A stretch of DNA of 64,000 nucleotides from an uncultured Erysipelotrichaceae bacterium. Lineage in GTDB: Bacteria > Bacillota_I > Bacilli_A > RFN20 > CAG-826. The first letter of the stretch is position 1, and every line of letters starts with the position of its first letter. The notes under the pieces are model-generated. The model saw only the letters and a program-made list of their open reading frames with translations. It made no database searches and was not told the origin of the DNA. Positions 15,893 to 33,727 of the stretch are shown here, one piece after another. The stretch spans positions 13,073 through 77,072 of the forward strand of contig CADCNT010000004.1 of the NCBI GenBank assembly GCA_902802905.1, written 5' to 3'. The translations under genes and the position numbers were made by a program.

Positions 15893-16017
15893 AAGCACCT
15901 CACAAAATGGAGAGAGGCACCTTAGTGGTTAGTGGCTATGTTTGTTAAAGTGCCACTCTCCAAATTAGATGATAAATCATCTAATCCAGTATCGCCTAGG
16001 TGATAGATAGGTGCTAT

Positions 16018-16452: not shown

Positions 16453-16467
16453 AGCTATCATTCTCCA

Positions 16468-16782: not shown

Positions 16783-16922
16783 AAATAAAGTTCTCCTTGA
16801 GCCCAAAAAGGACTCTAACTATTTAGCGAGAGCCCTAAATATTAATAATGATTTATGCACGTCTTCTAATGTGGATATGAAATAGGCACGCATCAATTAA
16901 TAAATAGAGCTTTCGCTTCTTT

Positions 16923-17177
16923 TTAAGACTCGTCATCATCACTTATTAACGATTCTTGATAAGCAATTTCCTCTTTCCAGATGACTTCAATAGGAATGTC
17001 TAGAGCAATGGCTAGTGAGTTTAGCGTCCTAAACTGAATCGCACTACCGATAACACCATTTTCTATGCGGTTATAATGTTGATGACAAACGCCCATATCT
17101 AGAGCAACGCGATATTGTGAATAACCAAGTTTTTGTCTTGCATTCACTAAGTACATTCTTATCGGGTGGTACTTCAT
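16923..17177 (-). CDS. Cro-like XRE-family HTH regulator, 84 aa
   Basis: HTH motif LGYSQYRVALDMGVCHQHYNRIENG. It is divergent from the cI-like gene. Confidence 0.75.
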   Translation of the reverse strand: MKYHPIRMYLVNARQKLGYSQYRVALDMGVCHQHYNRIENGVIGSAIQFRTLNSLAIALDIPIEVIWKEEIAYQESLISDDDES

Positions 17178-17445
17178 ATCGTTTGCTCCTTTCTATGTGT
17201 TTTTTCACATCAACTCTTGGTATGGAGATCCACTTGCATTTAGTTGCGAGTTTGACTCCTGACCACAACACAAGAATATCGCATCGTTTGATAAAAAACA
17301 GGCCTTTTCAACACTCTAAAGTCACTTGCAACTATGTTGAAACAAACAGCCATTTTTCTATTTTGTTTTTTGATTTGCGCAACCATTTATTAACATTTGA
17401 ATTAAAGTCCTATTATCTTAGCAACTAAAGTGCTAATATGAGTTC
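17178..17445. promoter_or_regulatory. Divergent promoter/operator region of the satellite lysogeny switch
   Basis: An extended -10 (TGCTAATAT, 17433-17441) ends 4 nt before the cI-like ATG, which implies a leaderless mRNA. A near-palindrome TTGCAACTATGTTGAAA lies within the region. Confidence 0.5.
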
Positions 17446-18225
17446 ATGAAATTCACCGAAAAAATGGAAAAACGATACAAAATCGGCCAATGTATCGCAA
17501 GTTACAGAGATTTAGCTAATGAGACTCAACAAGATTTAGCCAAGCTTCTTAGAGTAAGCAGACAATATATTTCGAATATTGAAAGTGGAATATCGAATCT
17601 TCCATTAGATAAAGCGAAAATTATTGCTGACCACTATCACATTCCCGTTTCGAGACTTCTTGGAGACGAAAGCGCCAGTCCCTCTGAATCGCTTCAAATG
17701 ACTGTTTATAAGGAAGCTAGTAGGATGGAGCCAGTTGGAATGGCTATTGTTGTATCGAGACATTATTTAGAAAAACAAAAATATAAAAATAGGAAAAAAG
17801 AGATGGTAGATAAGACATACCGCCTCGATAATAATGTCTTTGGTTTAGTTAGTGATGATTTATACGCTATTGAAATATCTAATAGCAGCAAAACATTGAA
17901 CGTTCCTGCTGGTTCAAAAGCTATTGTTCATAAAATAACTAACGAAAGCCAAAAACCTGATTTTAAAAAGCCCACACTGGTTGTATTGCGTTGGTTAGGA
18001 ACAGCAGAAGCTCCAGAAGAACTTGGGATTGCTTATGAAAAATATGTTAAGGAACATCCTGTAGAGAATATTTTTATATCTTTAGTTGATCCCACAAAGA
18101 AAGCAAAATACAATGGGCAAACCTTAATTCAATACACGATGGCTAATGAAACTTTGTTCGCAACTATAGATGAATTAAAGGAAATGTGCGTGGGCATAGT
18201 CAAAAAGGTCGTTATTGATTATTAG
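17446..18225 (+). CDS. cI/Stl-like repressor, with an N-terminal XRE HTH and a C-terminal domain of unknown type, 259 aa
   Basis: HTH motif TQQDLAKLLRVSRQYISNIESG. It is divergent from the Cro-like gene and upstream of the integrase. Confidence 0.75.
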   Translation: MKFTEKMEKRYKIGQCIASYRDLANETQQDLAKLLRVSRQYISNIESGISNLPLDKAKIIADHYHIPVSRLLGDESASPSESLQMTVYKEASRMEPVGMAIVVSRHYLEKQKYKNRKKEMVDKTYRLDNNVFGLVSDDLYAIEISNSSKTLNVPAGSKAIVHKITNESQKPDFKKPTLVVLRWLGTAEAPEELGIAYEKYVKEHPVENIFISLVDPTKKAKYNGQTLIQYTMANETLFATIDELKEMCVGIVKKVVIDY

Positions 18226-18340
18226 CATATTCTCATCACCTATTATCAAATTGTCTCCTCAAATATACTAAGGACGGATATGAAATAGGGACCATCTTGG
18301 TCAAACGTCTTCTTGGTGCAATCACCGAGGAGACTTTTTT

Positions 18341-18511
18341 ATGTTAGCAATTTCAAAAGATGTGGAAGTCACGTTCATGCGTGCTATCCTTAAATATTTT
18401 TATACGCAAAAGCTGCTTACAGAAATTGAATATATACGTATCATAGACGACCTCGAGTCAGGTAATAAATACGTTGATAATAATACAGGAAAGAGTGATG
18501 TATATGTGTAG
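18341..18511 (+). CDS. Small ORF (56 aa) between the repressor and integrase, possibly co-transcribed with int
   Basis: ATG at 18341 is preceded by GAGGAG 8 nt upstream. The TAG stop overlaps the RBS of int. Sequence begins MLAISKDVEVTFMRAILKYFYTQKLLTEIEYIRIIDDLESGNKYV... Confidence 0.4.
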   Translation: MLAISKDVEVTFMRAILKYFYTQKLLTEIEYIRIIDDLESGNKYVDNNTGKSDVYV

Positions 18512-18525
18512 GAGGTTATTCATAT

Positions 18526-20268
18526 ATGAATAAAGTATCAATTATAGCCCCTACAAAAGCTGACGGAATATTCCAAAGAAGCTTAGCTGAACTCAAGGTA
18601 AAGCGTGTAGCGGCTTATGCTCGTGTTAGTACAGAAAGTGACGAGCAAGCAAACTCATTCGAAAACCAAGTTGAAGAATGGACAAGAAGGATCTTAGAAA
18701 ATCCAAATTACAAGCTAGTTAAGATCTATGCAGATGAAGGTATTTCTGGTACTTCAATACGAGGTAGAGAAGGATTCCAGGAAATGATTAGCGATGCCAA
18801 AGCAGGAAAGATTGACTTGATATTAGTTAAATCAATTTCCAGATTCGCAAGAAACACAGTCTTAACAATTCAAACTATTAGAGAACTTAAAGAGTGTGGA
18901 GTCGAAGTATATTTTGATAACGAGAACATTTGGACCTTTGACCCAAAAACAGAATTTATGCTTTCAATCATCAGTATGATGGCTCAAGAGGAGAGCAGAC
19001 ATATTTCTGAAAACGTTACTTGGACTTTCAGAAAGATGATGAACGAAGGTAAAACCTTCATCGCTTCTTCTAATTTCTTGGGTTATGACTATGACAAAGA
19101 GAAAGAAGGGCTAGTCATCAATAAAGAACAGGCACCTATCGTTAAACTTATATACGACTTATACGATCAAGGCGTTGGAACATTAGAAATATGTAGGACT
19201 CTAAAAGCCAGAGGATATAAAACTGTCACTGGCAAAGAAGACTGGCACGCAAGCACTGTTATAGGCATTTTAAAGAACGAAAAATATGTCGGCGACTTGT
19301 TGCTTCAAAAAACATATACGGTTGATTATTTGACCCATAAGAGAAGAGATAACACCGGTCAAAGGCAAAAGTATTATGTTAGAGATGCTCATGAGGCTAT
19401 TATCCCTAGAGATCAATGGGAAAGAGTCCAGGTCAAAGTGAACAACCAAGCTTTAAAGGCAATGGGTGGTCACAGGGATCTAAACCGTTATAACGTCAGG
19501 TATCCTTTGAGTGGAACGCTTATCTGTTTAGAGTGCGGAGAAACATATAAAAGAAGACACTGGTACAACGGTTATGAAGATATCGGCGGAAAGATAATGT
19601 ACCAATGCGGCGGATACGTGTATGACTATAAAAACGAAAAACACTGCAAAGTTTCTCATGGAATTAGCGAGAATCTACTCCACCACACTATTGCTGATGC
19701 CATCAACAATGTTTATTTGAAAGATAAAAGTGTCTTTAGAAAGATTTCCACTCTTATCAGAAAGGGATTATCTGTTACCTCTATAGACGAAAACATTAAT
19801 GCTAAACAAGAAGAAAAAGAGAAGATTAGCAAAGACATAGACTTTATCTTAAAAGAAAGGATGAATGCTGGTCGTACCGATATCAAAGAAAAGCTTGATA
19901 GCCAGTACGCAGAATTAGTTCAACAATATCAACGCATTTGTAGTGAAATCAAAACTCTTCAAGATAGAGAAAGAGATAACCTTGACTCTGAATCTAGATT
20001 AAACAAGATGTTGTCTATCCTGGACGGAAAACAAATCACAGCGGATATGATTACGTTAGATTTATTAGAGGCCTTTATATACCGAATTATTGTTGTTGAT
20101 AGAAAAAACATCGTCATCACAATTAACGCATTTAATTCACTTTCGCTTGAAGACCTAAGAGCTCAGAGAAAAGAGGTTGTTAAAAGAGAGCCTCTATACG
20201 AAGGAAAAGTTAGAATTAAAAACCCAAAAAGATGGGCTGAACTAAATTACAAAGTTGTGCTTGTTTAA
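18526..20268 (+). CDS. int: Large serine recombinase (integrase), 580 aa
   Basis: The resolvase N-terminal domain has the catalytic Ser region (AAYARVSTESDEQANSFENQ). A recombinase domain and a Cys-rich zinc ribbon (CLECGETYKRRHW...C) follow. A C-terminal coiled coil is present. The RBS is AGGAGG. Confidence 0.9.
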   Translation: MNKVSIIAPTKADGIFQRSLAELKVKRVAAYARVSTESDEQANSFENQVEEWTRRILENPNYKLVKIYADEGISGTSIRGREGFQEMISDAKAGKIDLILVKSISRFARNTVLTIQTIRELKECGVEVYFDNENIWTFDPKTEFMLSIISMMAQEESRHISENVTWTFRKMMNEGKTFIASSNFLGYDYDKEKEGLVINKEQAPIVKLIYDLYDQGVGTLEICRTLKARGYKTVTGKEDWHASTVIGILKNEKYVGDLLLQKTYTVDYLTHKRRDNTGQRQKYYVRDAHEAIIPRDQWERVQVKVNNQALKAMGGHRDLNRYNVRYPLSGTLICLECGETYKRRHWYNGYEDIGGKIMYQCGGYVYDYKNEKHCKVSHGISENLLHHTIADAINNVYLKDKSVFRKISTLIRKGLSVTSIDENINAKQEEKEKISKDIDFILKERMNAGRTDIKEKLDSQYAELVQQYQRICSEIKTLQDRERDNLDSESRLNKMLSILDGKQITADMITLDLLEAFIYRIIVVDRKNIVITINAFNSLSLEDLRAQRKEVVKREPLYEGKVRIKNPKRWAELNYKVVLV

Positions 20269-20271
20269 TAG

Positions 20272-20325
20272 AAAAAAAGGCCACATATCCCCGTTATTTT
20301 GAGGAAAAGTGGTCTTTTCTTTTTA
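20272..20325 (+). terminator. Putative terminator after int
   Basis: GGCCAC ... GTGGTC with one G-U pair and a large loop, followed by TTTTCTTTTT. Confidence 0.35.
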
Positions 20326-20502
20326 GTCTTTTTTAGGTAAGCATGCAACGATAATTAAACCAATTAGTCCGAGGAATAAACCTCCAAAAAACCATCCAGC
20401 TACACTTCGATTTTTATAACCAGCAATTATTGGGCAAGCAATCATACTTATAACAGTATTAATAATTCCAAGAACAGTAAATACAGGAGAAATTTCAATC
20501 AT
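20323..20502 (-). CDS. Small hydrophobic peptide (59 aa, 2 predicted TM segments)
   Basis: The translation is MIEISPVFTVLGIINTVISMIACPIIAGYKNRSVAGWFFGGLFLGLIGLIIVACLPKKD. A GGTAGGG RBS-like sequence lies upstream. It sits 79 nt downstream of gene E on the same strand. It is absent from the ORF track because it is shorter than 60 aa. Confidence 0.4.
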   Translation of the reverse strand: MIEISPVFTVLGIINTVISMIACPIIAGYKNRSVAGWFFGGLFLGLIGLIIVACLPKKD

Positions 20503-20581: not shown

Positions 20582-21139
20582 TTAATCACCATTAATAAAA
20601 ATATAATCTTCTGCCACTACTTCCTCTCGAGAGATTGATAAATTGAAATAGTCTTCTTCTTTTGTGTAACGGTCTGTAATGAAATGAAGCTTTTTATTCT
20701 TTGAGCCAAGCAATATTCTGTCTCTATCAATTTGATTTTCCAAGAACGGACCATCAATCAACAAATCAACGGAATTGACAAGTTCTTCGTCTAAAGAATC
20801 TTTGGTTTTTCCAGAAAACATAATAATGCCCAATCCAAGCTCATGTATTCTTGAGTTGAAGTGTTTTAAACCAACCTGTAAAGAAGGTTCTCCTCCTGTA
20901 AGAGTGATACCTTCTATTTTATATTTATCTTTAGCTATTAAAACGATGTTTAGCAACTCGTCTTCTGTAACTATGTGATTTGGCTTGAGGGCTTGCAAAT
21001 CTGGGTTCCCACATCCTTTACAATTGATATTGCATCCTTGAAACCAAATGCAGCACCTATTGAAAGGGCCTTCTATTTTAGTTAGAAGTTTAATATAAGC
21101 AACATTGAACTTAATCATTGAATTCAAATTCGAATCCAT
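20582..21139 (-). CDS. NrdG-type radical-SAM activating enzyme (anaerobic ribonucleotide reductase activase family), 185 aa
   Basis: The radical-SAM cluster is CCIWFQGCNINCKGC (Cx3Cx2C). The SAM motif is GITLTGGEPS. The C-terminal VDLLIDGPFLENQIDRDRILLGSKNKKLHF matches the layout of E. coli NrdG (…SGCVHECPGCYN…GISLSGGDPL…VLVDGKF…RGSSNQ…). No nrdD is nearby. Confidence 0.75.
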   Translation of the reverse strand: MDSNLNSMIKFNVAYIKLLTKIEGPFNRCCIWFQGCNINCKGCGNPDLQALKPNHIVTEDELLNIVLIAKDKYKIEGITLTGGEPSLQVGLKHFNSRIHELGLGIIMFSGKTKDSLDEELVNSVDLLIDGPFLENQIDRDRILLGSKNKKLHFITDRYTKEEDYFNLSISREEVVAEDYIFINGD

Positions 21140-22934
21140 TCTTACCTACTTTAGTAACAAGCTTGCTGCCTTTTAAAGAACGTAAATCATCTTTGTTTTC
21201 AAACAAGAACATGGCAAGCGGATCTAACAATCTATCATTAATAGCGTTGAGAATGTCTCTACCACCCTTAGAAGAATCAACTCCTTTAAGGATATATTCA
21301 ATCGAATCTAGTTCTTTTTCAAATTCTAATTCGAGCTTATATTTTTCTTCAATTCCCTTAATGACTGGCTTGAGTTTAGACTTGCAAATCTTAACTTGGA
21401 AGTCTCTGTCTTGAATAAAATTAAATGGAACGATGTTGTTATAACCAATACGGCCTAAAAGTTCAGGTCTCTTTAATTCATTGTCAAAGTAGTCCTTAAC
21501 AATCTTAATAAATTCTTTAGCAACGCCTTCCTTATCAGTGCTTGCGGCAACTTGATTTGCTCCTAAGTTAGAAGTAAAGACGATGATTGTATCGCTGAAA
21601 TATACTGTTTCGCCTTTAGAATCTGTCAAACGACCATCTTCTAATATTTGTAAAAAGATATCTAGGATTCTAGGATTTGGTTTCGCGGCTTTTTCAATTT
21701 CATCAAATAAAACAACACTGAATGGATGTTCTTTGATTGCATTAGTTAATTGGCCACCTTCTTCATATCCAACATAACCTGGAGCGGCACCAATTAATTT
21801 TTGGTCACTATTCTCTTGAGCATATTCAGACATATCAAAGCGGATACATGCTTGGTCATCACCGAATAAGAATTCTGCTAGTGCTTTTGATAATTCTGTT
21901 TTACCAACACCAGTTGGACCAACAAAGAAGAATACTCCTTTTGGCATTGATCTAGATGATTTCTTGTGGAGACCAGTTAAGCCCATGTAGGCTTTGATAA
22001 CAGTTTTTTCGATTTTCTCAATGGCTTCTTCTTGTCCAACGACACGTTCGGATAATTTCTTTTTAATGTTTTTAACACTAGCTTGGTCTAACTTTTCCCA
22101 AGGATTATCTTTTTCGCCGTATTTGAAGAGATAGAACAATTTGTCAAAGGACATTTTTTCTTCTTTTCTGGACAAACGAGATAATTGAATAATCTCTCTA
22201 TTTGTAAAGTCTTCGAGCATATCGATATATTGAGAATTGTCATTATCCAATAAAGAACTTGTTCCACTAGCAAGACGCACTTCAAATGAGTCTTCAATCT
22301 TCTGAATCATCGCTCTTCTTTCTAATCTATCTGGTTTTTGTAAGGTAACTATTTCTACTTCTGGGTTCCCTTGATAGAAAGATAATGGTAATCCGGATGC
22401 TTTATTAAGAATTATGACAACAACACTCTCGTTGCAATCAGAATTAAGGTAATCAACTTTTCTATCCTTAAGCGCTTTTCCTAATAAAGTAATATTTTGT
22501 CTTTCATCATCTGAAAGCCCATTCACGCTGAATAAATATTCAGACCAGTTAATAATGAAAGCTACTTTCTTTTTCTTATCTATGACGTTCTTATAAACAA
22601 CATTAAGTATTTCAGCTGGGCTTTTGAATAATCCTTGTTGAGATTTTGGATTTTTATCTTCTTCCTCATCTTCAAAATCATAGCTATCGCCTTCAACTTC
22701 AACTTCGTCTGTTAAAGTTAGCTTATCAATAGCGCCTGTTGCACCTTCAACACGATCCCAATAAACGATGTCAGGATAATCCATATCTTTAAACATCGCT
22801 TCTAGATATTCTCTTAAAGTGACGATCTTGTTTTTTTCATCAAGATAAACATCGCCGACATTGCCATCAATCATGACACACTTCTTGATACCGGCGCTTC
22901 TTCTGATTTTGTTAAAACTATTTTGTAAAGACAT
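21111..22934 (-). CDS. Novel N-terminal domain (about 300 aa) fused to a Clp/ClpB D2-type AAA+ ATPase, 607 aa
   Basis: The D2 module runs RVVGQEEAI...GVFFFVGPTGVGKTELSKALAEFLFGDDQACIRFDMSEY...IGAAPGYVGYEEGGQLTNAI...VVLFDEIEKA...LLGRI. The AGGAGG RBS is 8 nt upstream. The gene overlaps gene E by 29 nt. Confidence 0.8.
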   Translation of the reverse strand: MSLQNSFNKIRRSAGIKKCVMIDGNVGDVYLDEKNKIVTLREYLEAMFKDMDYPDIVYWDRVEGATGAIDKLTLTDEVEVEGDSYDFEDEEEDKNPKSQQGLFKSPAEILNVVYKNVIDKKKKVAFIINWSEYLFSVNGLSDDERQNITLLGKALKDRKVDYLNSDCNESVVVIILNKASGLPLSFYQGNPEVEIVTLQKPDRLERRAMIQKIEDSFEVRLASGTSSLLDNDNSQYIDMLEDFTNREIIQLSRLSRKEEKMSFDKLFYLFKYGEKDNPWEKLDQASVKNIKKKLSERVVGQEEAIEKIEKTVIKAYMGLTGLHKKSSRSMPKGVFFFVGPTGVGKTELSKALAEFLFGDDQACIRFDMSEYAQENSDQKLIGAAPGYVGYEEGGQLTNAIKEHPFSVVLFDEIEKAAKPNPRILDIFLQILEDGRLTDSKGETVYFSDTIIVFTSNLGANQVAASTDKEGVAKEFIKIVKDYFDNELKRPELLGRIGYNNIVPFNFIQDRDFQVKICKSKLKPVIKGIEEKYKLELEFEKELDSIEYILKGVDSSKGGRDILNAINDRLLDPLAMFLFENKDDLRSLKGSKLVTKVGKNGFEFEFND

Positions 22935-22946: not shown

Positions 22947-24029
22947 CTATTTCTTATTTTTGCTTGTATCAACATGTTGATAATGCATTTTTTGTATTTT
23001 ATCAGGATTCTCCCATTGTACTTCTTCGTGAAGAATATTGATATCGTAAATGTTTTTCAGGTCTTCAAGGAACGGCTCAATATCTTTTCTACAAGCTTGA
23101 CCCTCATATTCATCGAAATGGTACATAAATTTGCCATTTAATTGGATTTCAAACTCTGCCATTTGGCCTGAAGCCTTAAGTGCCACTAATTTGACCACAT
23201 TTCTTTCTTTATCAATTTTTAGGTTCTTCTTAGTATCAACAATGAAGCCTCTTGCTTTAATTGCTTTGATAATGATTTTTAATGTTTCTTTTCTGATCTT
23301 CTCATCAGTAATGGACTCGTTAGCAACAGATGTGGCCTCGTCAATTGTTGTAACTGATTCAAGCACTTCTTCATCAACACCACTGTTTCTAAGGTCTTCT
23401 TTATATTCCTCAATAACTGCCCTAGTCTTTTTACCAAGAAGGACGTCATATTCTTCTTGAGCTTTGGATAATACTTCATCAAAACTAAGTCCTTGATTTT
23501 CCTCTTTAAGAAGTTCACGATATGCTAATTCTCTTAATGAAATATCGTCAATTTGATTGATTTTATCCATGATTTGCTGTGAAAACTGTAAAACTCCTTG
23601 TGACTTAGCAAGTAAATTATTACCAGCATCTAAGAGCCCTTCATCAATCATTTCATCAATCATTGCAAGCTTAGAACCGGTTAGTTCGTTTACAGTTCTA
23701 GTAAGGTCTGCCGACTGTCTTTCTAATTGTTCTCTCACTCTTAAATAATCAGCATAACGGGAGTCGTGATTATTTGTAGCAAACTTTTTTAAAGCTTGAT
23801 ATTGCTCTAATGTTGCTTTAAATTCTTCAATCTTTTTTTTGATTGTTTCTTTAGATTCAAGAAGATAATTCTCGTATTCAACAACTTTGGCTGATTCGAG
23901 CTTGCTTGCGGTCTTGTGAATCTTATCAATGGTTTTATCAATTTTGCACAAAGAATGAATGGCAGTATCACATTCGGCCTGAATTTTAATCGTTAAACCT
24001 TCGTAATCAACAGTTACTTGTTGGCTCAT
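22947..24029 (-). CDS. Coiled-coil protein of unknown function, 360 aa
   Basis: The sequence is heptad-rich with a small C-terminal alpha/beta-like region. Its start overlaps the stop of gene B (ATGA). Confidence 0.65.
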   Translation of the reverse strand: MSQQVTVDYEGLTIKIQAECDTAIHSLCKIDKTIDKIHKTASKLESAKVVEYENYLLESKETIKKKIEEFKATLEQYQALKKFATNNHDSRYADYLRVREQLERQSADLTRTVNELTGSKLAMIDEMIDEGLLDAGNNLLAKSQGVLQFSQQIMDKINQIDDISLRELAYRELLKEENQGLSFDEVLSKAQEEYDVLLGKKTRAVIEEYKEDLRNSGVDEEVLESVTTIDEATSVANESITDEKIRKETLKIIIKAIKARGFIVDTKKNLKIDKERNVVKLVALKASGQMAEFEIQLNGKFMYHFDEYEGQACRKDIEPFLEDLKNIYDINILHEEVQWENPDKIQKMHYQHVDTSKNKK

Positions 24030-26170
24030 TTAATTTCTTCCTCCAAATCAAATATTTCTTTTGCCCATCTTCTTAAGTCATCGACGGTAAAGTTTGCAGT
24101 TCTATCTTCAGGGTGAATAAAAGCGTTTCTATTTTCTCTAAAATCATGCAAGTCACTTATAATGCTCTTTTCAATTACACCGGTTCTTCTTGCATCAGAA
24201 AGCATATCTGAAAGTGTTCCATCCAATTGATATTTGTTCTTCAATATCATTTCTAATTTGGCTGAAAGATTAACAAAGACAAATTGATAATCGCCTGCAA
24301 CAATCTTTTTCTCTATAACTTCTGGTTTAATGTTACTTGGATTTTTCAAAGCCGAGTCAATCATATTTAAATAATCATTGATGGTTTCAAAGACGGACAT
24401 AAAACCTTCGTATTCAGCAAACAACTCTACGTTAGCTTTTTTAAACAATTGAATGTTTTTGAAGAGCGAATAAGCAGTACCGTATTTATTTCTAAATCCA
24501 TTTCTATCAATATTTTCTTCATCAATGGAATAAGATTTATAATTGGTTACCCCAGATATTGCCTTTAAGCCATCTAGCAATTCGGCAAAATTAACTAAGT
24601 CTATAAGTGATTTCTCTTCAACGGCTTTTTCTTTTAACGCTTCTTCGACTGGATTAATGAATAAAATCACCACTTCTTTAGCAAATCCGTTAGATACCAG
24701 CAATTCATATGTTTCCACTTTCTTAGTAAACTTTTTGTCATCAGCAAAGATAAGTTTGAGAGCTTCTTCACTACTCAATGATAAGTATTTAGGAATTGAG
24801 GATGTGATTTTAAGAACTGTCTCTAAATTTCCTTGATTACATGATTTTAAATAATCCGTGTAATTAATTTTGGTAAGTTCTTTATGCTTTAAAAGGATAT
24901 TAGGATTCATTACTGCGGTTGACTTCATTTCGTTGAGTCTCACCAAATTAGATTCGCTGCTATCAACCATATAGCCATCCATTAAAGCAGATGCCAAGTC
25001 ATAATCTTTTGTAATATTTGTCAAAAGTGTTAATTCTTTAAATTTTTCTTCTGAATACTCAGATCTTGCTTTTAGATAGATTCCAACCACTTTCTTTAGC
25101 TCGTCATTAGACAACTTAATTCTCAAAACCAACGGAAGTGTAATAGTGCTGAATTTTTCATCTTTAAAATCAAATGTTGCAGGAATATAAGCAAAAATTG
25201 AATCATGAGCATCGACTTGAATAAATTCAAACAATTTATCAAATTCATTAATTGCGTTCTCATCTTTACAAACAAGACCGTTGCTTACAGTGTAATTGCC
25301 TTTGGTAAAAAGCAACTTAAACTTCTGTTTCAAAACATCATCTATATCTTTAGGAATAATAATTCCACTTATCTTTTCGCTATCAAATAAGTCAAATGAA
25401 GCATGTTCGGTATATTTGGATTTAAATTTAAATCTATTTTTATATGAGATGGATTTTGTGATTGTTTCGTTTGTATAATAAGTCTCTGCAAATTTTTGTA
25501 ATAAAGGATCTTCAAACTTAATGCTGATAGATGAACCGTCAAGAGACATTTCACAATCATATTTGACTGTCCATTTCTCATACTCATCAATAGTTTCTAC
25601 TTTGGTAATAATTTCCTCTTTTTTAACAGGCACGCCTTTTCCTTTGTTTAAATTAAGGAAATTCTCAACATCCTTATTGCACTTGAAATTATCATAAAAT
25701 TCAGGTGTTAAAGCACAATCCATAAGAGGTTTTGGCTCTAAATCAGGATCAATCTTTAACAGCAATTCATTCTTAGCGATGTCATAAAATACAGCTAGTT
25801 TCGCTTCTTTATTCACACCTGTTGGTATTGATTCTTCGGCGAAAATCTTCTTGCCCTTTTCGGTAAATCTAAAATGTTCGATGTTATAGGCATCAAATTC
25901 ATTTTTATAAAATTGATCATAATTACATACCAATATTTCCTGTCTGATTAAGCTATCAAGTTCTTCAGCAAAGATGTAATGAAGATTCTTTGGAACACCA
26001 AAGTTCTCTAAAACACTACATAAACGTGCCGTTCTATCTTTTGATTCATTAATAAGGACCAACAAAATATAAGCCACGCCTGATGGTTTCTTGACTTCTG
26101 AATAGGTAATTAGCTCATTCATCTTAAAGAAAGGGAACTGAATAGAGGTATCTAACTTAAACTTATCCAT
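24026..26170 (-). CDS. 714-aa protein with a C-terminal HEPN-like motif (Rx4H), a putative RNase effector
   Basis: The C-terminus reads ...DLHDFRENRNAFIHPEDRTANFTVDDLRRWAKEI. The N-terminal 550 aa are unrecognised. Its start overlaps the stop of gene A by 8 nt. Confidence 0.6.
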   Translation of the reverse strand: MDKFKLDTSIQFPFFKMNELITYSEVKKPSGVAYILLVLINESKDRTARLCSVLENFGVPKNLHYIFAEELDSLIRQEILVCNYDQFYKNEFDAYNIEHFRFTEKGKKIFAEESIPTGVNKEAKLAVFYDIAKNELLLKIDPDLEPKPLMDCALTPEFYDNFKCNKDVENFLNLNKGKGVPVKKEEIITKVETIDEYEKWTVKYDCEMSLDGSSISIKFEDPLLQKFAETYYTNETITKSISYKNRFKFKSKYTEHASFDLFDSEKISGIIIPKDIDDVLKQKFKLLFTKGNYTVSNGLVCKDENAINEFDKLFEFIQVDAHDSIFAYIPATFDFKDEKFSTITLPLVLRIKLSNDELKKVVGIYLKARSEYSEEKFKELTLLTNITKDYDLASALMDGYMVDSSESNLVRLNEMKSTAVMNPNILLKHKELTKINYTDYLKSCNQGNLETVLKITSSIPKYLSLSSEEALKLIFADDKKFTKKVETYELLVSNGFAKEVVILFINPVEEALKEKAVEEKSLIDLVNFAELLDGLKAISGVTNYKSYSIDEENIDRNGFRNKYGTAYSLFKNIQLFKKANVELFAEYEGFMSVFETINDYLNMIDSALKNPSNIKPEVIEKKIVAGDYQFVFVNLSAKLEMILKNKYQLDGTLSDMLSDARRTGVIEKSIISDLHDFRENRNAFIHPEDRTANFTVDDLRRWAKEIFDLEEEIK

Positions 26171-29100
26171 TTATCTTGTTCTCCCTTCCACTAATAACAT
26201 CGGTGTCATCTATAACTTTTCCGTATCTTTCTATTGTTGAAAGAATTTCTTCATAGACTCTGAAACCTCTTTGATCCATGCCTGGTCTACCATAAACATC
26301 TGGCAAATCAATAACACCTTTTGACTCAAGGTAGTTTCTGTTTCCAACAATGATAAGCATTCTTCTTGCTCTAGATAGGGCGACATTAATTCTTTGGTAA
26401 GCCAAAATGAAGCCCGGATTGCTTCTTCTTGGGTCTTCTGGGTTACGCACGGTTGACAAGATAATGATGTCTCTTTCATCGCCTTGGAAATCATCAACGG
26501 TGGACACAATCATTTTTTCAGCATCAGTCTTAAATGCATCTGTCTTTACTTTTTCACTCTTGATAATTTCTTTAATTCTTCTTGCCTGGTCACCATAAGT
26601 ACAAATTACACCAATGCTTAATTTTTCATGCGTAGGATTTTCTTTAAAGAAGGTATTAAGCTTTTTCAACATCTCAGCGACCACTCTCGCTTCTCCAGTG
26701 TTGTACATGGATGTAGAATCGGCCTCATGTGTCTCGTTTCCTTTGCAGTCAATAAAGTAAATGTGCTTGTCTGGCTCAATGATATTTCTACCATTTGAAT
26801 AGAGCCTGACATTATGTTGCTTCTTGTTGTTTTGTCCTGGCCAACCAAGTTTTAATTCACCACGATAGAAATGATTGAAAACATGCATAATGTGCTCGTG
26901 GCATCTATATTGCTGAACTAGCATGGTTTTATAACTGCTAGGAATCTTCTCAAATAATGTTTTGAAGAAACATTCTTCATACAGTTCAGTGAATCTCTTG
27001 TTAATGTCTTTATTAATGATTGAATCATCTAAGCCTTCAAAGTCATCATCACGCAGCTTGGAGAACTCATACATAGGTGGCAATTGTCTATGGTCGCCAA
27101 CAAGAATAACGGTCTTGCCATATAAAATTGGTATGAGCAAATCAATGAAGCTAGATTTAGATACTTCATCGATAATAACCACATCAATGCCAACAGATTT
27201 AATATCAACTCCATCAATGTTGTATTCAGAAAGGGAATCTAAGTTTCTGCTACTATAATAATCGCTTGAGGTACAAGTTATACCAAACACGTTAGCGTTC
27301 TCAAACAGTTCTCTGGTATAGTCTTTTCTATCTCCTTCAATAACATCGTTGGTTGTGATGTAATTGGAGATTTTTTCATACATTGGTATCTTTTCTTTAT
27401 TCTCTTGTTCTTTACTGGTGTAATCAGTTTCTAGTTCATTCCACTTCTTCTTAATGATGACAAGAGCTTCTTCAATATCGTTAAAAGGTTCAGATATTTC
27501 AAAGTCTCTGAAGAATTGGATAACACCACTTTCTAATTTGTACTTGTTCTCTTGAACATCTTTAACGTCGTTTCTATCTTGAATATCGATTATTTGCTCA
27601 TTGATGGATTGAATTGATTTCTTGCGTGTGCTCATTTCTTTATCAAGCTTCTCTTGTTCGAGCTCAAGTTTAGCCAGCTCACCATTGCATCTTTCAATAA
27701 AATCATATTTAATCTCAGAAACTTGTTCTTTAAGTGAGGCAACAGAGTTATAAATTGAAGAGATATTTTTAACTAAGTAATCGAATTTGAAAATTCCAGA
27801 TAATTTTAAATCTTCTGGCAGTTTTTCTTCGTTAGAATCTAATTGCTTTTTAATCTCGATTAATTGTTTTCTTAATTGATCATATTCCTCTTCTTTGCCA
27901 GGAATCACATCATCAAAATCATCTTTGCAATTTTTAATTGCATCTCTTATTCTATTACGCTCAATCTCGAGCATTGTTTTATTTGAATCCGGATTAATAA
28001 CGGCGAGCTCTCTTGTTATTTCTTCCATCTTGATGCTATTGATTGCCTTAACTAATTCTGAGATATCTTTATCAACAAATATTTCCTTGTCGAACAAAGG
28101 AATTAAACTGTTGCGACATTCAATAATTAAATCAGTTTTTACATCCTCGTCTGGTTTGAGGTTGTCGTTTTCAATGTGGCGAATAGTTCTTCTGACGATA
28201 TCTATTTCTATTCTTAAAGAGTCTTTTTTGTTGCTTAAACCAGTTATTTCAACACTAATGACTTTAGCTTGCTTTTCTAAACCCTTAATCTCCTCAGCGG
28301 CATCGTTAAGAACCTTGATTGACTTATCAACTTTAGCTTTTAAGAACACTAACTTGTCAAAACTTTCTTTGAATTCCTCTTTGTTCTTTTGGAAGTTCTT
28401 ATATCTCTCCACAGCCTTCTTCATGTTAGAAGAAATATTTTCATAGAAATTATCAACTAAGTATTTTGGATCGTATTCATTTTCTTTCTTAGCTGTAGTT
28501 GGAATTAAGCGAATCGGCACTATTTCCGCAATCTTTGGCAATCTTTCAAAAACATTATCAATAGCTTTATGGGTTTCACTGGATATTAAAACCTTCTTGC
28601 CCTTTTTAACCATTTGAGCAACTGTTTCTGCTATGACTTGTGTCTTTCCTGTGCCAGGAGGACCTTGCAATAGGAAAATGCCATTACTAGAAACAGCTTT
28701 TCTTACTGCTTCTTTTTGCATTTCGTTTAATGAATCTAAATACCATGTCCAATCGCTTGGCTCAGTTTGAACACTATTAAGTTCTTCTGGATTAAATAAA
28801 TAAGTTGAAAGATATGGGTTTTTAACATAACCAGAATAAAAGTTTTTAAGTGCTTGTTCTTGTCTCTTAATCTTGGCTGTTTCCGCCCTACTGTCATAGA
28901 CAATAAATTGGCAGCTGTTAATAGCTTTTATTTGCTTATCGTTAATAGCATTATTAATATCGCCTAGTCTAAAATATAGAGCAAAACGAATGATTGTTTC
29001 TTCTTCAATAACGACTTGTTTATCATTTTTTAGCTTTGCATCGAGCTCTTCCTTGGCTGCTATTTTTTCGTTTCTAATATCGTCTTTATATTTATTATTA

Positions 29101-30674
29101 ATCTCAATTATTTTTTCACTTCTTAAACGCTTGAGTTGGTTATCGTAATTGCTTCTAAGCTTCTGCTCATATGCCGCTAGCAACTTTTCGTTTCTCTCAA
29201 CATAAAGAGATCTGACATCAAGTTTTGAGTACTCTTTTTCTAATATTTCGCTAATGCGTTCTTGATAATCATTTTCTTTTTCTTTTTTATCCTTTGGATA
29301 TTTCTTGAGAACATCTTTTCTAATAGACGCTTTCATTGTTTTAATCTTTTCAACAATAGCTGTGTCCTTGTTCTCTATTACTTCGTCATCAAGTTTTGAA
29401 GAAAGCTCTTGTTTTTTCTCTGTCAAAGATTCAGCAAGTTCTTTATCAAACTTTTTAGATGTTTCTTTAATAAAACTCTCAACTTCTGAAGAAACAATTC
29501 TTTCATACTTTGAATCTATCGTCTTGTATTCTTTGTCGATTGATAATTCATATTGATACTCTAATTCACTCAAGTGTTCTTCTGGCAAAACATCATAAGA
29601 AAAGACTTTGAACCTATCTCCCAAAGCATATCCAGAGGTCAACATCTCACCAATTCTAGGTGTTTCACCATTTCTTCCGGCAACGGTTGGATCCAAAGAA
29701 GTGATGAAAACATTATCGCTAGCTAGAGAACGAATGGCGCGCTCTTCTTCACTAACACTTTTGCCTCTTTTTAAAACTTTTTTAGATTCGAATTCTTTTT
29801 TATTTCTTTCAATTATTAAACGAACAATTGGGAATTCTTCAGCTTCTTCTATCTTGTCAGACAAAAGAATCATTTCACCATAGCCAAATTCTGGTCTGTT
29901 ATCTAAAAGATAATCTTCATAAATGGAGGAGTTCCTTTTGTATTCTTTTTTATTAACTGCATAGGCTTTAACGAATGTAGCGCTATCTAGTTTAAAGTTT
30001 CTCTTTGCTTGTTCTTGCAAATAGTAATTTCTAAATTCGATGTACTTATTCCACTCTTCGTATCTTCTTCTGACTTCTTCAGGATGAGAAACGGTGAAAC
30101 AGCTATTTATTAATTCGAGAACATTGTTTGGAGTGAAGTATGTTTCGTTATAATCGACATTTGGAATTGACCACACGCTTACATTGAAAGTACCATTGAC
30201 CCCACTTCTTCTTTCTGTTGAAAAAGAATTACATGCCATTGCCGAAATAACCATATCGTGAGGCGAGGACATAGATTCATCAATTAGTTGAATGCCTTTA
30301 ACTTCAAAGAACTTTTGCTTACCACCCTCTACTATTTTGCCAACCAATATAATGTTTTGATTATCTGGTAGATACGTGCGCATGGACATAGTTAATTCTG
30401 GTCTAATGACCACATTATCTAAAAACTGTGTTTTGCCGCTTGATGATTCTCTTTTTTCTCTTAAAAAATTTGGACAAGAAATGTAGTATCTCTTGACCAT
30501 TCCTGATGGAAAGCATGTCTCAATAAATCTTTCGAAACTATTCGACTGTCTTCTTGGAGGGATTCTTTTTTGTAGATTTTTAAACTGTCCTCTTAATGAC
30601 TCGCCAAAAAGCTCGTTTTTAACGTTTATCTCTTTGTCTAATCTATCAGCAAATGAAATAAATAAATATGGCAT
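26163..30674 (-). CDS. Upf1/DNA2-like SF1 helicase, 1503 aa, with an N-terminal extension of about 630 aa and a coiled-coil insertion of about 500 aa between Walker A and motif II
   Basis: Walker A is LLQGPPGTGKTQVIAETV, motif II is VVIIDEVSKSS, and Upf1-type motifs V/VI are VDDFQGDERDIIILSTVR and INVALSRARRMLIIVGN. The RBS is AAGGAA 7 nt upstream. Confidence 0.8.
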   Translation of the reverse strand: MPYLFISFADRLDKEINVKNELFGESLRGQFKNLQKRIPPRRQSNSFERFIETCFPSGMVKRYYISCPNFLREKRESSSGKTQFLDNVVIRPELTMSMRTYLPDNQNIILVGKIVEGGKQKFFEVKGIQLIDESMSSPHDMVISAMACNSFSTERRSGVNGTFNVSVWSIPNVDYNETYFTPNNVLELINSCFTVSHPEEVRRRYEEWNKYIEFRNYYLQEQAKRNFKLDSATFVKAYAVNKKEYKRNSSIYEDYLLDNRPEFGYGEMILLSDKIEEAEEFPIVRLIIERNKKEFESKKVLKRGKSVSEEERAIRSLASDNVFITSLDPTVAGRNGETPRIGEMLTSGYALGDRFKVFSYDVLPEEHLSELEYQYELSIDKEYKTIDSKYERIVSSEVESFIKETSKKFDKELAESLTEKKQELSSKLDDEVIENKDTAIVEKIKTMKASIRKDVLKKYPKDKKEKENDYQERISEILEKEYSKLDVRSLYVERNEKLLAAYEQKLRSNYDNQLKRLRSEKIIEINNKYKDDIRNEKIAAKEELDAKLKNDKQVVIEEETIIRFALYFRLGDINNAINDKQIKAINSCQFIVYDSRAETAKIKRQEQALKNFYSGYVKNPYLSTYLFNPEELNSVQTEPSDWTWYLDSLNEMQKEAVRKAVSSNGIFLLQGPPGTGKTQVIAETVAQMVKKGKKVLISSETHKAIDNVFERLPKIAEIVPIRLIPTTAKKENEYDPKYLVDNFYENISSNMKKAVERYKNFQKNKEEFKESFDKLVFLKAKVDKSIKVLNDAAEEIKGLEKQAKVISVEITGLSNKKDSLRIEIDIVRRTIRHIENDNLKPDEDVKTDLIIECRNSLIPLFDKEIFVDKDISELVKAINSIKMEEITRELAVINPDSNKTMLEIERNRIRDAIKNCKDDFDDVIPGKEEEYDQLRKQLIEIKKQLDSNEEKLPEDLKLSGIFKFDYLVKNISSIYNSVASLKEQVSEIKYDFIERCNGELAKLELEQEKLDKEMSTRKKSIQSINEQIIDIQDRNDVKDVQENKYKLESGVIQFFRDFEISEPFNDIEEALVIIKKKWNELETDYTSKEQENKEKIPMYEKISNYITTNDVIEGDRKDYTRELFENANVFGITCTSSDYYSSRNLDSLSEYNIDGVDIKSVGIDVVIIDEVSKSSFIDLLIPILYGKTVILVGDHRQLPPMYEFSKLRDDDFEGLDDSIINKDINKRFTELYEECFFKTLFEKIPSSYKTMLVQQYRCHEHIMHVFNHFYRGELKLGWPGQNNKKQHNVRLYSNGRNIIEPDKHIYFIDCKGNETHEADSTSMYNTGEARVVAEMLKKLNTFFKENPTHEKLSIGVICTYGDQARRIKEIIKSEKVKTDAFKTDAEKMIVSTVDDFQGDERDIIILSTVRNPEDPRRSNPGFILAYQRINVALSRARRMLIIVGNRNYLESKGVIDLPDVYGRPGMDQRGFRVYEEILSTIERYGKVIDDTDVISGRENKING

Positions 30675-30834: not shown

Positions 30835-31038
30835 TTAGTCAATTGATATTCCATCGATGCCAAGCATTTTGCACATTTTGAAGAATGTGTCAATGTCGGT
30901 TCCGTGGTTGATAATTCGACTCACGGTCTTACGACTAGCACCAAACTTTTTACCAAAATTGCTTTGGTTTTTATATTGGTCTTTAATGCGGCATTTGATT
31001 TCTTCCATAATGTTTTTGGAAGAGTAGCAATTAGTCAT
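30835..31038 (-). CDS. Small HTH (XRE-like) regulator, 67 aa
   Basis: HTH region FGKKFGASRKTVSRIINHG. Confidence 0.6.
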   Translation of the reverse strand: MTNCYSSKNIMEEIKCRIKDQYKNQSNFGKKFGASRKTVSRIINHGTDIDTFFKMCKMLGIDGISID

Positions 31039-31090: not shown

Positions 31091-32053
31091 TTACATTAAA
31101 TTGAAGAAATTATCTTTTAAAATCTTGAGAAGTGATTCATCAGAATTCCAATATGCTTCATCTGGGTCTTCTCCATACATCATTTCGCAGAATTCTTTAA
31201 CAAATTCAAAGAGGTTATTTAATGTTTCATCAACAAACTCAGGGCCAATCTTTAACCAATTGCCTGCATACATGCCGTTTTCATATTCGAACCCCACTTC
31301 TCTATAAGAGTAGACGAATTTGGATTGAAACTTCTTTAGTTTTTCATCTTTTTCAAAAGGGTTATTAGCTAAAGCATTATATGCATTAAGTGTGTTGTGT
31401 TTTAAGAAGTTATCAATTTTGTTCAAAACATCGAAATAACGATAATGAGGAAGTTTATATAAAGGGTTGGCTCTTTTTGTCTCACCGTTAAATCTTTCCT
31501 GAACATGAAAGAAGAATGATTTGTATGTGAAATCTTGGGTGTTGGTATATCCTCTTTCTTTGATAACTAAGAGAATGGTTCTAAACAACTCCGTGAAGAT
31601 CTTTTGCAAATATTGCAAATGAATGCTTTTGATGACTTCGCCATATTTCTTTTGACGCTTAGCACCAGCAAGAAGAGCGTTAAATTCAATATCTTCAAAA
31701 TCATCAGCACTAGAAGTATGAGCGATTTCGTTAACTCTAACGCTTTCTCTCACTTCTTCTGGTGTTGTTAGATTGTTGATAGCCTCTTTATATTCGAGGT
31801 TCCAATCTTTTGTGAGCCTATTTATTTGGTCCCTTAAAACGTTGACCGCATAATTTGAGCGGTTTTTATATCTAGGGATGAAATAATGTGTGTTCCTAGG
31901 TGTTGTAAAAAGAGCTTCAGGAAAGCATCCATCACAGTGAAGCAACTTTAATCTCTTTGTATCGATATGATATCTTCCATCTTTAAGATGAAAGCCATAA
32001 TAAGCATAGTCACTAGGGCTAACTTTATCGTAATCAAATAGTTCTCTAGTCAT
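31091..32053 (-). CDS. Hypothetical protein, 320 aa
   Basis: Long ORF immediately upstream of the HTH gene with the same orientation. No recognised motifs. Confidence 0.55.
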   Translation of the reverse strand: MTRELFDYDKVSPSDYAYYGFHLKDGRYHIDTKRLKLLHCDGCFPEALFTTPRNTHYFIPRYKNRSNYAVNVLRDQINRLTKDWNLEYKEAINNLTTPEEVRESVRVNEIAHTSSADDFEDIEFNALLAGAKRQKKYGEVIKSIHLQYLQKIFTELFRTILLVIKERGYTNTQDFTYKSFFFHVQERFNGETKRANPLYKLPHYRYFDVLNKIDNFLKHNTLNAYNALANNPFEKDEKLKKFQSKFVYSYREVGFEYENGMYAGNWLKIGPEFVDETLNNLFEFVKEFCEMMYGEDPDEAYWNSDESLLKILKDNFFNLM

Positions 32054-32365: not shown

Positions 32366-33703
32366 CTATTTCTGTTCGGATAAAAATCTCTTAAGTAAAA
32401 AGGTCAAGAAATAAGGGAAAGTGTATATATTATTTGCAAAGCCAACATTCTTTTCGGCTAATTTAATCCCAAAATTAATGTCACTTATTTTCTCATCTTC
32501 TATAAAAGCTTTGACTGATTTCATTTTTCCATCAGTAGCCTTAACATCTATTGGTATCAGATTATTTGCATCCCTAACAAAGAACTCGACTTCTTGTGTG
32601 GCATCTTCGTTTTTAAAGAAATATAAGTCATATCCCGACTTCTTCAACATATCTGCAACAATATTCTCATAAATGCCACCTTTATATGTATTGAAGTTCT
32701 TGTTTTCTCTTAAATCTTTTGATGATTCTTCATCTAGTGATGCTACTAGTAGACCAGTATCCATAAAATACATGCGATAATTATCTGGATCATAATTGCC
32801 CTTGAGTGGTAGAGCCAAATCATTTAAGCAATAAGAAACATTAACAATTCCAGCGTCAATTAACCAGTCTGTTACTCCAACATATTCTCTATTTCTTGCA
32901 CCATGAGCAACTTTAGAAATTCTAAATTTTTTATTCTCTTGACTTAGAAAAACCGGAATCTTTCTAAAGACATTCAATATTTTTGTTTTATCTAATCCTT
33001 CAGCATATTTAGTAATGTCTTCCTCATAATCAAGGATGATTTGTTTTTGAAGTGCTAAAGTGCCACTATAATTCTTTTGATTCACAAAGAGTTTAACAAT
33101 TTCAGGCATACCGCCTAATACCATATATTGATGGAATCTTTCTAGAAGGACATTGAATTGCGAGTCAGATAACGGAGTTAACTCCTTCATACACTCATAA
33201 ACTTTCTCAATTTGTTCTTCTTTATAGCCTAACGCCCACAAGAATTCTTCAAAATCCATAGAGTACATTGTATAGTCTATTTTATGTCCTGTACTTACTG
33301 ATTCTATTTCTTTATATGAAAGTCCCATTAAAGAACCAGAGCAAATAACATCAAATCTTCCGTCTAATTTAAAAGATTTTAATGATGTCGCAGCATTAAC
33401 ACATTTTTGAATTTCGTCAAAAAAGATAAGGGTCTTGCCAGGAATGAATTCCAAAGATGGATCTTTTAAAGAAATGTTTTCAAGTATTTTATCCACTTTA
33501 TAGCCATCATCAAAAATATCTCTATATTCGGGGTTGAGGACAAAATTTATTTCCACTAATGAAAGATTGTTTCTTTTCGCAAACTCTTCGACTGTTTTGG
33601 TTTTGCCAATTTGTCTAGCTCCTTTAATAATAAGTGGCTTTTTATTTTTGCTAATAAACCATTCATCTAAAAACTTATCTATTTTTCTTCTTAAATAATC
33701 CAT
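32366..33703 (-). CDS. AAA+ ATPase of the DUF4143/COG1373 type
   Basis: P-loop PLIIKGARQIGKTKTVEEF, Walker B LIFFDEIQK and a conserved C-terminal DUF4143-like region. The GAGGT RBS serves ATG at 33703. The ORF track starts at 33724. Confidence 0.75.
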   Translation of the reverse strand: MDYLRRKIDKFLDEWFISKNKKPLIIKGARQIGKTKTVEEFAKRNNLSLVEINFVLNPEYRDIFDDGYKVDKILENISLKDPSLEFIPGKTLIFFDEIQKCVNAATSLKSFKLDGRFDVICSGSLMGLSYKEIESVSTGHKIDYTMYSMDFEEFLWALGYKEEQIEKVYECMKELTPLSDSQFNVLLERFHQYMVLGGMPEIVKLFVNQKNYSGTLALQKQIILDYEEDITKYAEGLDKTKILNVFRKIPVFLSQENKKFRISKVAHGARNREYVGVTDWLIDAGIVNVSYCLNDLALPLKGNYDPDNYRMYFMDTGLLVASLDEESSKDLRENKNFNTYKGGIYENIVADMLKKSGYDLYFFKNEDATQEVEFFVRDANNLIPIDVKATDGKMKSVKAFIEDEKISDINFGIKLAEKNVGFANNIYTFPYFLTFLLKRFLSEQK

Positions 33704-33727
33704 ATCATGACCTCGCGAATACATATT

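Follow-up and report, generated by a model that had tools for sequence, protein, structure and literature searches.

An NrdG-like radical SAM enzyme linked to a ClpB-like ATPase in a conserved mobile gene cassette of anaerobic gut bacteria

The DNA analysed here (hereafter the window) is a stretch of 64,000 nucleotides (nt) from an uncultured Erysipelotrichaceae bacterium. At 20582-21139 of its minus strand lies a gene for a radical S-adenosylmethionine (SAM) enzyme which resembles NrdG, the activase of anaerobic ribonucleotide reductase. This gene very probably does not code for the reductase activase of the cell; it is a fixed component of a mobile cassette of five, often six, genes. The five genes follow each other in the order Upf1/MkoA-like helicase, 714-aa (amino acid) protein ending in a HEPN domain, 360-aa coiled-coil protein, AAA+ ATPase and radical SAM enzyme:

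20582..21139 (-), NrdG-like radical SAM gene, the last conserved gene of the cassette, 185 aa from the first start codon (M1) or 178 aa from M8
21011..21034 (-), codons of its cluster motif C36-x3-C40-x2-C43 for [4Fe-4S]/SAM, invariant in alignments
20885..20896 (-), codons of its GGEP sequence (aa 82-85), the SAM-binding 'GGE' motif, invariant
21111..22934 (-), AAA+ gene, 607 aa, directly upstream of the radical SAM gene
21111..22079 (-), ClpB/ClpC D2-type module of the AAA+ protein (aa 286-607), with Walker A GPTGVGKT, Walker B DEIEK and pore loop GYVGYEEGG
22080..22934 (-), N-terminal 285-aa domain of the AAA+ protein, possibly a degenerate AAA tier
22947..24029 (-), gene for the 360-aa protein, with an N-terminal helical/coiled-coil part and a conserved C-terminal alpha/beta domain at aa ~240-345 (22995-23312)
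24026..26170 (-), gene for the 714-aa protein, with a helix/hairpin N-terminal region (winged-helix-like by eye), a beta-rich region and an all-alpha half ending in HEPN
26163..30674 (-), gene for the Upf1/MkoA-like helicase of superfamily 1 (SF1), 1503 aa, with the core at aa ~640-1460 (26295-28757) and a long coiled-coil insert

An intact radical SAM reading frame with the NrdG layout had been proposed at this position, and it is indeed there. All motifs are present (CCIWFQGC-NIN-C-KG-C with C36/C40/C43, GGEP and DGPF...GSKNK), and the product matches the Pfam families Fer4_12 (7.5e-24) and Radical_SAM (5.9e-11). The layout of E. coli NrdG is paralleled along its whole length (xGPxxR, C-x3-C-x-G-C-x-N, GGEP, the FSG/TGY strand and DGxF...GSxN[QK]) at 27% identity, with ~30 residues more at the C-terminus of the window enzyme. 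The N-terminal loop E23-G24-P25-x-x-R28 is invariant in the cassette family, F or Y replacing the second Gly of a DGxGxR-type substrate loop; relatives from a sister clade, described below, carry EGPG.R at this position. The best family matches are all to protein-activating enzymes, namely NrdG, NrdG2, PflA, NrdG3 and YjjW. The top NCBIfam model is NrdG (TIGR02491) with 66.9 bits against a cut-off of 126.1. NrdG2 (TIGR02495) scores 58.3 against 131.15, PflA 52.4, NF008335 50.4 against 199 and NrdG3 (TIGR02826) 46.6 against 151.7; the curated cut-offs, at 126-232 bits, lie far above each of these scores. The match to the viperin profile pVip is marginal (1e-4) and confined to the cluster region. 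Public gene calls for the identical sequence give either 178 or 185 aa, many homologues are 178-181 aa long, and some public records label them NrdG.

Among 73 distinct orthologous radical SAM genes (at least 50% identity), GGEP is kept in all 73 and CX3CX2C in 71 of the 71 with the N-terminus on the contig. This conservation is far beyond chance; loss of the cluster ligands in orthologues, which had been named as a refuting result, does not occur in this set. Most likely, the reading frame encodes a functional radical SAM enzyme of the NrdG/pyruvate formate-lyase (PFL) activase type which was recruited away from ribonucleotide reduction.

The radical SAM gene overlaps the AAA+ gene within an operon, as the original prediction had it, and the two are translationally coupled. 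The overlap is 29 nt if counted from M1 (ATG 21139) and 8 nt from the in-frame M8 (ATG 21118), ATGATTAA; across all gene calls seen, the start/stop overlap with the AAA+ gene is 8-29 nt. The predicted figure of 29 nt thus stands for the longest reading frame but is not a certain one, since the M8 start gives 8 nt.

The only recognisable part of the AAA+ protein is the ClpB D2 module, again in agreement with the prediction. It matches AAA_2 (1.4e-50, aa 331-496) and the D2 domains of ClpB, ClpC and ClpE in PDB (aa 281-582, 1e-53 to 1e-58), while full-length Hsp100/Clp models reach 200-250 bits against cut-offs of 885-1417 and cover only aa ~280-580. No active D1 ring, ClpN domain, M-domain or ClpP-binding loop was matched in a scan with family models. 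PADLOC profiles for PDC-M37B (1.8e-33) and DolB (2.6e-20) match the ATPase module only. The first 285 aa have no Pfam or PDB sequence match and no similarity to the D2 module of the same protein. Alignment of aa 162-251 with the sensor-1/Arg-finger/lid part of a classical AAA domain stays below significance and is a lead only (hhalign E 0.007, probability 5.7%). The N-domain may be a degenerate first tier, which would make the 'single-ring' label given to this protein uncertain.

The cassette is conserved as a unit. About 110 loci were gathered by context look-ups and three collection scans. Of these, 41 were long enough for the gene order to be assessed, and 39 of them have all five genes in the same order. 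An AAA+ gene immediately precedes the radical SAM gene in 53 of the 55 cases that could be judged. The flanks vary from locus to locus. Identity to the window proteins across loci is highest for the AAA+ protein (79-95%), followed by the radical SAM enzyme (55-76%), the helicase (47-80%), the 360-aa protein (50-77%) and the 714-aa protein (38-66%); for a 320-aa protein encoded upstream of the helicase in many loci it is 24-85%. This is what one would expect of a conflict system, in which a strongly constrained core is surrounded by peripheral proteins that evolve fast.

Where a source is named, it is a metagenome-assembled genome from gut, rumen or faeces, assigned to Bacilli, Erysipelotrichaceae, Anaeroplasma, Malacoplasma, Ca. 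Enterosoma and some Clostridia bins. All five genes of the Malacoplasma lineage contain in-frame TGA codons for Trp, which means that this lineage expresses the cassette with another genetic code, code 4. The cassette is also common: one radical SAM variant alone is indexed in 244 data blocks, and homologues of the 360-aa protein form 598 clusters. Those of the radical SAM enzyme form 331 clusters, the best 120 of them 67-99% identical. No match to the whole cassette was found among the PLSDB plasmids by megablast.

No nrdD or other gene for a glycyl-radical enzyme had been noticed in the window, and our searches agree. With E. coli NrdD as the query, tblastn over the 64-kb window gave a best E of 3, no NRDD, PFL or Gly_radical Pfam domain was found among the 28 open reading frames (ORFs) of at least 250 aa, and none of the ~110 fetched loci contains NrdD. 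The glycyl-radical signature follows the pattern [STIV]-x-R-[IVT]-[CSA]-G-[YFW]-x-[GACV]; as a regular expression, validated on E. coli NrdD, it finds G681 there. The helicase segment MLTSGYALGDRF had been named as a weak candidate for a glycyl-radical site, and this has to be dropped. The segment has no Arg, the residue before the Gly varies (S/A/V/N/Q), the pattern does not match, and only the G348-[YF]-x-LGDRF core is conserved while the signature flanks are not. Another residue rejected as a radical site is G288 ('KASGQ') in the 360-aa protein. It lies at the tip of a predicted hairpin, and in distant homologues it belongs to D-G-[KR], an ordinary turn.

We also looked at the Enterococcus phage EfV12-phi1 gene annotated as an activase of class III ribonucleotide reductase (L115:3986-4600), whose product is 31% identical to the window enzyme. 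It failed as a positive control for nrdD adjacency, as nrdD is not annotated anywhere within 4 kb of it. There may be orphans among phage 'NrdG' annotations, too. This phage gene adjoins a thymidylate synthase gene.

The genes upstream of the AAA+ gene are also tightly packed: the 360-aa and 714-aa genes overlap by 4 nt, and the 714-aa gene and the helicase gene by 8 nt. The helicase matches AAA_11 (1.4e-30), AAA_12 (8.8e-44), the PADLOC MkoA profile (6.8e-98) and the IGHMBP2-family model TIGR00376 (1.5e-61), and its N-terminal 640 aa have no PDB sequence match. Immediately ahead of the helicase core, from aa 600-615 onward (window 28830-28877, (-)), there is a nearly invariant motif, NFYSGYVKNPYLSTYLF, and a conserved GYALGDRF patch is found at aa 348-355.

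The C-terminal domain of the 714-aa protein (aa ~625-710, 24041-24298) is assigned to HEPN (DUF4145, PF13643). Its sequence match to DUF4145 is sub-threshold; it has the four-helix fold with an Rx4-6H motif by which HEPN domains are defined, with R681-N682-x3-H686 invariant. The predicted model of this protein is not a glycyl-radical-enzyme barrel. The 360-aa protein has no family match at all in Pfam, PADLOC, NCBIfam and further searches, and residues C20, G288, G310 and C313 are invariant in it. Alignments of the partner proteins are shallow (56-100% identity). The profile sets used were PADLOC 2.0 and NCBIfam 20, neither of which models the 360-aa or the 714-aa protein.

Several loci depart from the standard arrangement. 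L073 (6936-10534) has only a gene for a protein like the 360-aa one (34%), a 639-aa AAA+ gene (64%, with an acidic insert) and the radical SAM gene (70%). This three-gene form points to a core made of the 360-aa protein, the AAA+ ATPase and the radical SAM enzyme; as the contig stops 450 nt past the radical SAM gene, downstream genes are possible. It is preceded on the opposite strand by a gene whose N-terminal sequence is, by eye, glycyl-tRNA-synthetase-like, and further upstream by a Schlafen/AlbA_2 gene. In L089 (9983-20500) and L088 (855-3963) the radical SAM gene (43-44% identical) lies on the opposite strand, convergent with the helicase-714-360-AAA+ genes, and overlaps a gene for a 535-612-aa CorA-like protein with two C-terminal transmembrane segments. 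The linkage has therefore been kept through a rearrangement, with a membrane effector added.

More distant relatives are also found next to ATPases. At 35-40% identity (~200 aa) they overlap or abut genes for PF00004 AAA ATPases in L092, L098, L100, L102, L105, L109 and L111. Six loci of this sister clade are:

L092:6993-13966
L100:7141-14102
L102:44-4147
L105:6929-10594
L109:10001-13036
L098:7806-10591

The ATPases of the sister clade are 540-730 aa long, IetA-like in PADLOC, and their genes form 4-nt start/stop overlaps. Most sister loci also encode a small DUF2997 protein (not seen in L098). A 150-256-aa protein without family is encoded in L092, L100, L102, L105 and L109, HHH_3 proteins in L092 and L100, and HHH_3 or TPR proteins in some sister loci. 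No nrdD was present beside any of the 35-40% relatives examined. We found no description of this neighbourhood in the literature, although Kaur et al., 2020 (PMC7159879) may allude to it.

The conserved C-terminal domain of the 360-aa protein was compared with DUF2997 and with the 253-256-aa protein of the sister loci, and neither was accepted as a homologue (hhalign E 0.011 with a probability of 3.9%, and E 0.41, respectively; not significant). The G-x10-G-Q-x-C spacing, common by eye to the domain and to DUF2997/the sister protein, is a lead only, and a Pfam search with the domain at E of up to 10 gave nothing relevant.

Another relative, in L095 (8128-11537), lies between genes for GAP1-N2 and DO-GTPase2, both of which belong to the GTPase-centred conflict systems that the Aravind group has defined. 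The C-terminal extension of the window enzyme is common to the AAA-associated relatives. At least 25 residues follow GSxN[QK] in 75 of the 76 nearest representatives with this motif, compared to 6 in E. coli NrdG, with the reservation that some bona fide NrdGs may also be long at the C-terminus. A profile search of 1.84 billion representatives gave 37 clusters (50% identity) at E of 1e-30 or below and 1458 at 1e-10 or below; a share of the latter, weaker relatives will be canonical activases.

The cassette travels with mobile elements. The position of the radical SAM gene in an operon had been recognised before. What had been missed is that this operon is a unit carried by phages and mobile elements, and that a HEPN protein and a helicase of the MkoA-like kind are part of it. 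Three IMG/VR contigs carry the cassette. On one of them (L112, 10545-19730), it lies 1.4 kb from the HNH, small and large terminase (TerS, TerL), portal and protease genes of a phage or prophage, so it is prophage cargo there. The genes after the cassette on this contig are, in order:

RNase III-like protein; regulator; HNH endonuclease; small terminase; SAM-synthetase-N-like protein; ParB-methyltransferase; large terminase; portal; head protease

The RNase III-like protein, 172 aa long, is encoded right after the radical SAM gene. In L113 and L084, 166-aa genes with, by eye, a matching N-terminal sequence take the same place. Between the terminase genes of L112 lies a gene for a 260-aa protein with an S-adenosylmethionine-synthetase N-domain, for which a link to SAM supply is possible. 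L084 (9941-10456) retains only a 5'-truncated remnant of the radical SAM gene beside phage-like genes. The window cassette itself is situated between the following two genes:

18526..20268 (+), large serine recombinase, 580 aa (Resolvase 7.9e-34, Recombinase 5.6e-24, Zn_ribbon_recom 1.2e-8), flanking the cassette
32366..33724 (-), AAA_14/DUF4143 ATPase, upstream of the cassette

Recombinase genes or fragments are also found downstream of the cassette in L001 and L003. The flanks of the Malacoplasma locus L005 are of a non-phage kind (lactate dehydrogenase, kinase and GTPase genes).

In full-text literature searches we came across no account of the cassette; its parts have relatives in several known systems. 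With the NrdG/PflA activases the window enzyme has in common the layout and the best curated matches; it differs from them in falling below every equivalog cut-off, in the longer C-terminus, in the coupling to an AAA+ gene and in that no NrdD- or PFL-type partner was found in the window or the loci. Mokosh type I consists of the MkoA helicase and the MkoB PLD nuclease (bioRxiv 10.1101/2022.05.11.491447). The cassette has the same COG1112/Upf1-like SF1 helicase, but no PLD or Ser/Thr kinase match in any of its proteins; the putative nuclease is HEPN on a separate protein, and there are three further genes. DolB of the Dodola system has been described as a ClpB-domain protein (PMC11514479). Like Dodola and PDC-M37, the cassette includes a ClpB-D2-like ATPase; unlike them, it shows no DolA or PDC-M37A match for the 360-aa, 714-aa and 320-aa proteins, and the N-domain and the radical SAM partner are peculiar to the cassette.

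Ternary conflict systems with an FtsH-type AAA+ protein and a radical SAM 'effector', predicted to modify proteins or peptides, were outlined by Kaur et al., 2020 (PMC7159879, section 21). In them, too, a radical SAM enzyme is encoded alongside an AAA+ protein whose N-terminal part is inactive or unrecognisable and whose C-terminal ATPase is active. The differences are that the cassette ATPase is of the ClpB-D2 and not the FtsH type and that no vWA or MoxR match was found; the radical SAM enzymes may belong to different families. The one sentence on them in that paper is the only literature parallel that we found. Prokaryotic viperins and Ophion (bioRxiv 10.1101/2025.09.30.679545) likewise employ a radical SAM enzyme in an anti-phage system. 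Ophion pairs its enzyme with PHP and PRTase proteins; the window enzyme is half the size and of the activase type, and we rejected Ophion as the same system because of its different architecture. Finally, in contrast to HEPN toxins and the ancillary HEPN RNases of CRISPR systems, the HEPN domain of the cassette stands behind ~620 aa of beta-rich and all-alpha regions, and no MNT antitoxin or CARF domain was detected. Judged by these matches, the cassette fails membership of Mokosh, Dodola/PDC-M37, the vWA-MoxR-FtsH systems, NrdG proper and the viperins. What sets it apart is the pairing of an activase with an unfoldase, for which we know of no precedent, in a multigene mobile cassette, probably for defence, that is otherwise assembled from known modules.

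Overall, we give about an even chance to the view that the cassette is a mobile conflict system directed against phages or other mobile elements, in which the radical SAM enzyme cooperates with the AAA+ ATPase to act on a protein. By analogy with Mokosh and HEPN effectors, the helicase and the HEPN protein would constitute an arm which senses and cleaves nucleic acid, probably RNA. The 360-aa protein, the AAA+ ATPase and the radical SAM enzyme would form a protein-directed arm. The AAA+ hexamer would engage a polypeptide via its GYVG pore loops, and the radical SAM enzyme would abstract a hydrogen atom from a protein, either a cassette partner that is switched on or modified in this way or a phage protein. 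Oxygen-sensitive radical chemistry would fit the cassette's restriction to anaerobes; its hosts are anaerobic Bacillota and Mollicutes of the gut, in which prophages and integrative elements carry it. All characterised relatives of the NrdG-type fold that we know of take a protein loop as substrate. Since this is so, since the enzyme seems too small to enclose a small substrate, and since pairing with an AAA ATPase recurs in independent relatives, we infer a protein substrate and cooperation with the ATPase; the defence role, too, we infer from the comparisons above.

A more specific and more tentative version, which we consider somewhat unlikely as it stands, is a self-contained immune module of anaerobes. 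A polypeptide, from a cassette partner or a phage, would be presented by the ATPase and given a radical on its backbone or a side chain by the enzyme, without the help of a classical glycyl-radical enzyme; a protein would thus be armed or killed by radical chemistry. On this view, 'activases without a glycyl-radical enzyme' would make up a large superfamily, and the window cassette and the PF00004-AAA/DUF2997 loci would represent two of its branches.

Several observations count against a defence system acting on a protein. Neither PADLOC 2.0 nor NCBIfam holds the cassette as a system. The glycyl-radical signature occurs in none of the six cassette proteins. For the conserved C-terminal domain in the 360-aa protein, model confidence is too low to name a target loop. 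L020 (10001-13410) has intact helicase-714-360-AAA+ genes and lacks the radical SAM gene, which means that the other four genes may work without this enzyme. A cassette borne by phages could serve the phage in counter-defence or lysogeny control and not the host, and a small-molecule substrate is possible on sequence grounds. Finally, the search for nrdD covered the 64-kb window and the fetched loci and not the rest of the genome, and nrdD encoded there without another nrdG would agree with a displaced housekeeping nrdG.

That last explanation can draw on NrdG being the best-scoring curated family and on the public records which use this name. We nevertheless regard it as highly improbable, and the objection that the gene might simply be the only nrdG of its genome was not borne out by the window and the loci. 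The enzyme stays below every NrdG equivalog cut-off (66.9 bits where 126.1 are needed); its identity is 27% with E. coli NrdG and 31% with NrdG-like genes of phages. The same four partners accompany it in 39 of 41 judgeable loci across taxa and differing flanks, prophage included. Its nearest relatives lie beside genes of AAA ATPases and conflict systems, nrdD is found in 0 of ~110 loci, and the radical SAM gene has been lost either together with the cassette (L084) or alone (L020). The main rival proposal is that the enzyme makes a small molecule, either a modified nucleotide as viperin- or QueE-like enzymes do or a SAM-derived signal which activates the HEPN protein or a CorA-like effector. 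The CorA-like variant in L089 makes such a signal worth testing. We think this unlikely: all the best family matches are protein-activating enzymes, and Pfam and PADLOC revealed no domain for nucleotide binding or sensing (CARF, SAVED) in any partner. In viperin, MoaA and QueE, small substrates are enclosed by a C-terminal half-barrel, which an enzyme of 178-185 aa would lack, judging from known structures.

The cassette might also work for the phage or element that carries it, in counter-defence, lysogeny control or processing of the element's RNA. Its position beside the packaging genes of L112, its presence on three IMG/VR contigs, the recombinases adjoining it in the window, L001 and L003, and the RNase III-like gene which follows it in L112, with the matching 166-aa genes in L113 and in the L084 remnant, are all in line with this. 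The same prophage position is, however, typical of defence cargo. An MkoA-like helicase, HEPN and a ClpB-like ATPase are parts of known or candidate defence systems, L005 has non-phage flanks, and the HEPN-ending protein and the 320-aa protein diverge far faster than the AAA+ protein, as sensors in an arms race do. For these reasons we hold a function for the element itself to be distinctly unlikely.

To our knowledge, every characterised radical SAM enzyme of the NrdG/PflA branch serves a dedicated glycyl-radical enzyme, on which it installs the glycyl radical. Here a well-conserved member of this branch is tied to a ClpB-like unfoldase within a mobile helicase/HEPN cassette, and no such partner was found. 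If the enzyme does act on a protein in an immune system, this would be a new use of activase chemistry, and phage defence would gain a new effector or activation principle. As the chemistry would need anoxia, such a system would be invisible to screens in aerobic E. coli. The cassette is common in human and animal gut metagenomes and therefore bears on phage-host dynamics of gut anaerobes, among them Mollicutes-like lineages, for which few defences are known. Should the defence reading prove wrong, the five genes still form a unit with clear mutational targets, namely the three Cys, Walker B and the R/H pair of HEPN.

The minor features around the window cassette are:

31091..32053 (-), 320-aa gene, a possible sixth, fast-evolving member of the cassette, here 417 nt upstream of the helicase gene
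30866..30893 (-), promoter-like site TTGACA-16-CAAAAT, ~190 nt upstream of the helicase start (10/12 in a consensus scan, a pattern match only)
20323..20502 (-), 59-aa ORF with two transmembrane segments, ~80 nt downstream of the radical SAM gene, at most a lineage-specific accessory

The 320-aa gene lies directly upstream of the helicase gene in about half of the loci, and its product has no family, PADLOC or PDB sequence match. The 59-aa ORF is kept (86-98%, same position) only in the closest subclade (L011, L013, L032, L034-L036 and L038). It has no PHROG match and loosely recalls, by eye, small phage membrane or superinfection-immunity proteins.

Beyond this ORF, window positions 13020-20268 contain genes for a VapE-like primase (785 aa), a 259-aa HTH_3 regulator, an 84-aa regulator that is XRE-like by eye, and the serine recombinase. 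This region has the look of an integrative element or satellite, which meets the cassette at its recombinase end. The gene which follows the AAA+ gene in L020 resembles, by eye, the AAA_14/DUF4143 ATPase at the opposite border of the window cassette. Further away, at 3940-11576 (-), a gene for a 1591-aa Eco57I/N6_Mtase-type protein is followed by one for a 952-aa SNF2-family helicase, and the methylase and SNF2 helicase look like another pair of the defence type within this island. An SNF2 helicase gene adjoins the cassette in the Malacoplasma loci L005 and L006 as well.

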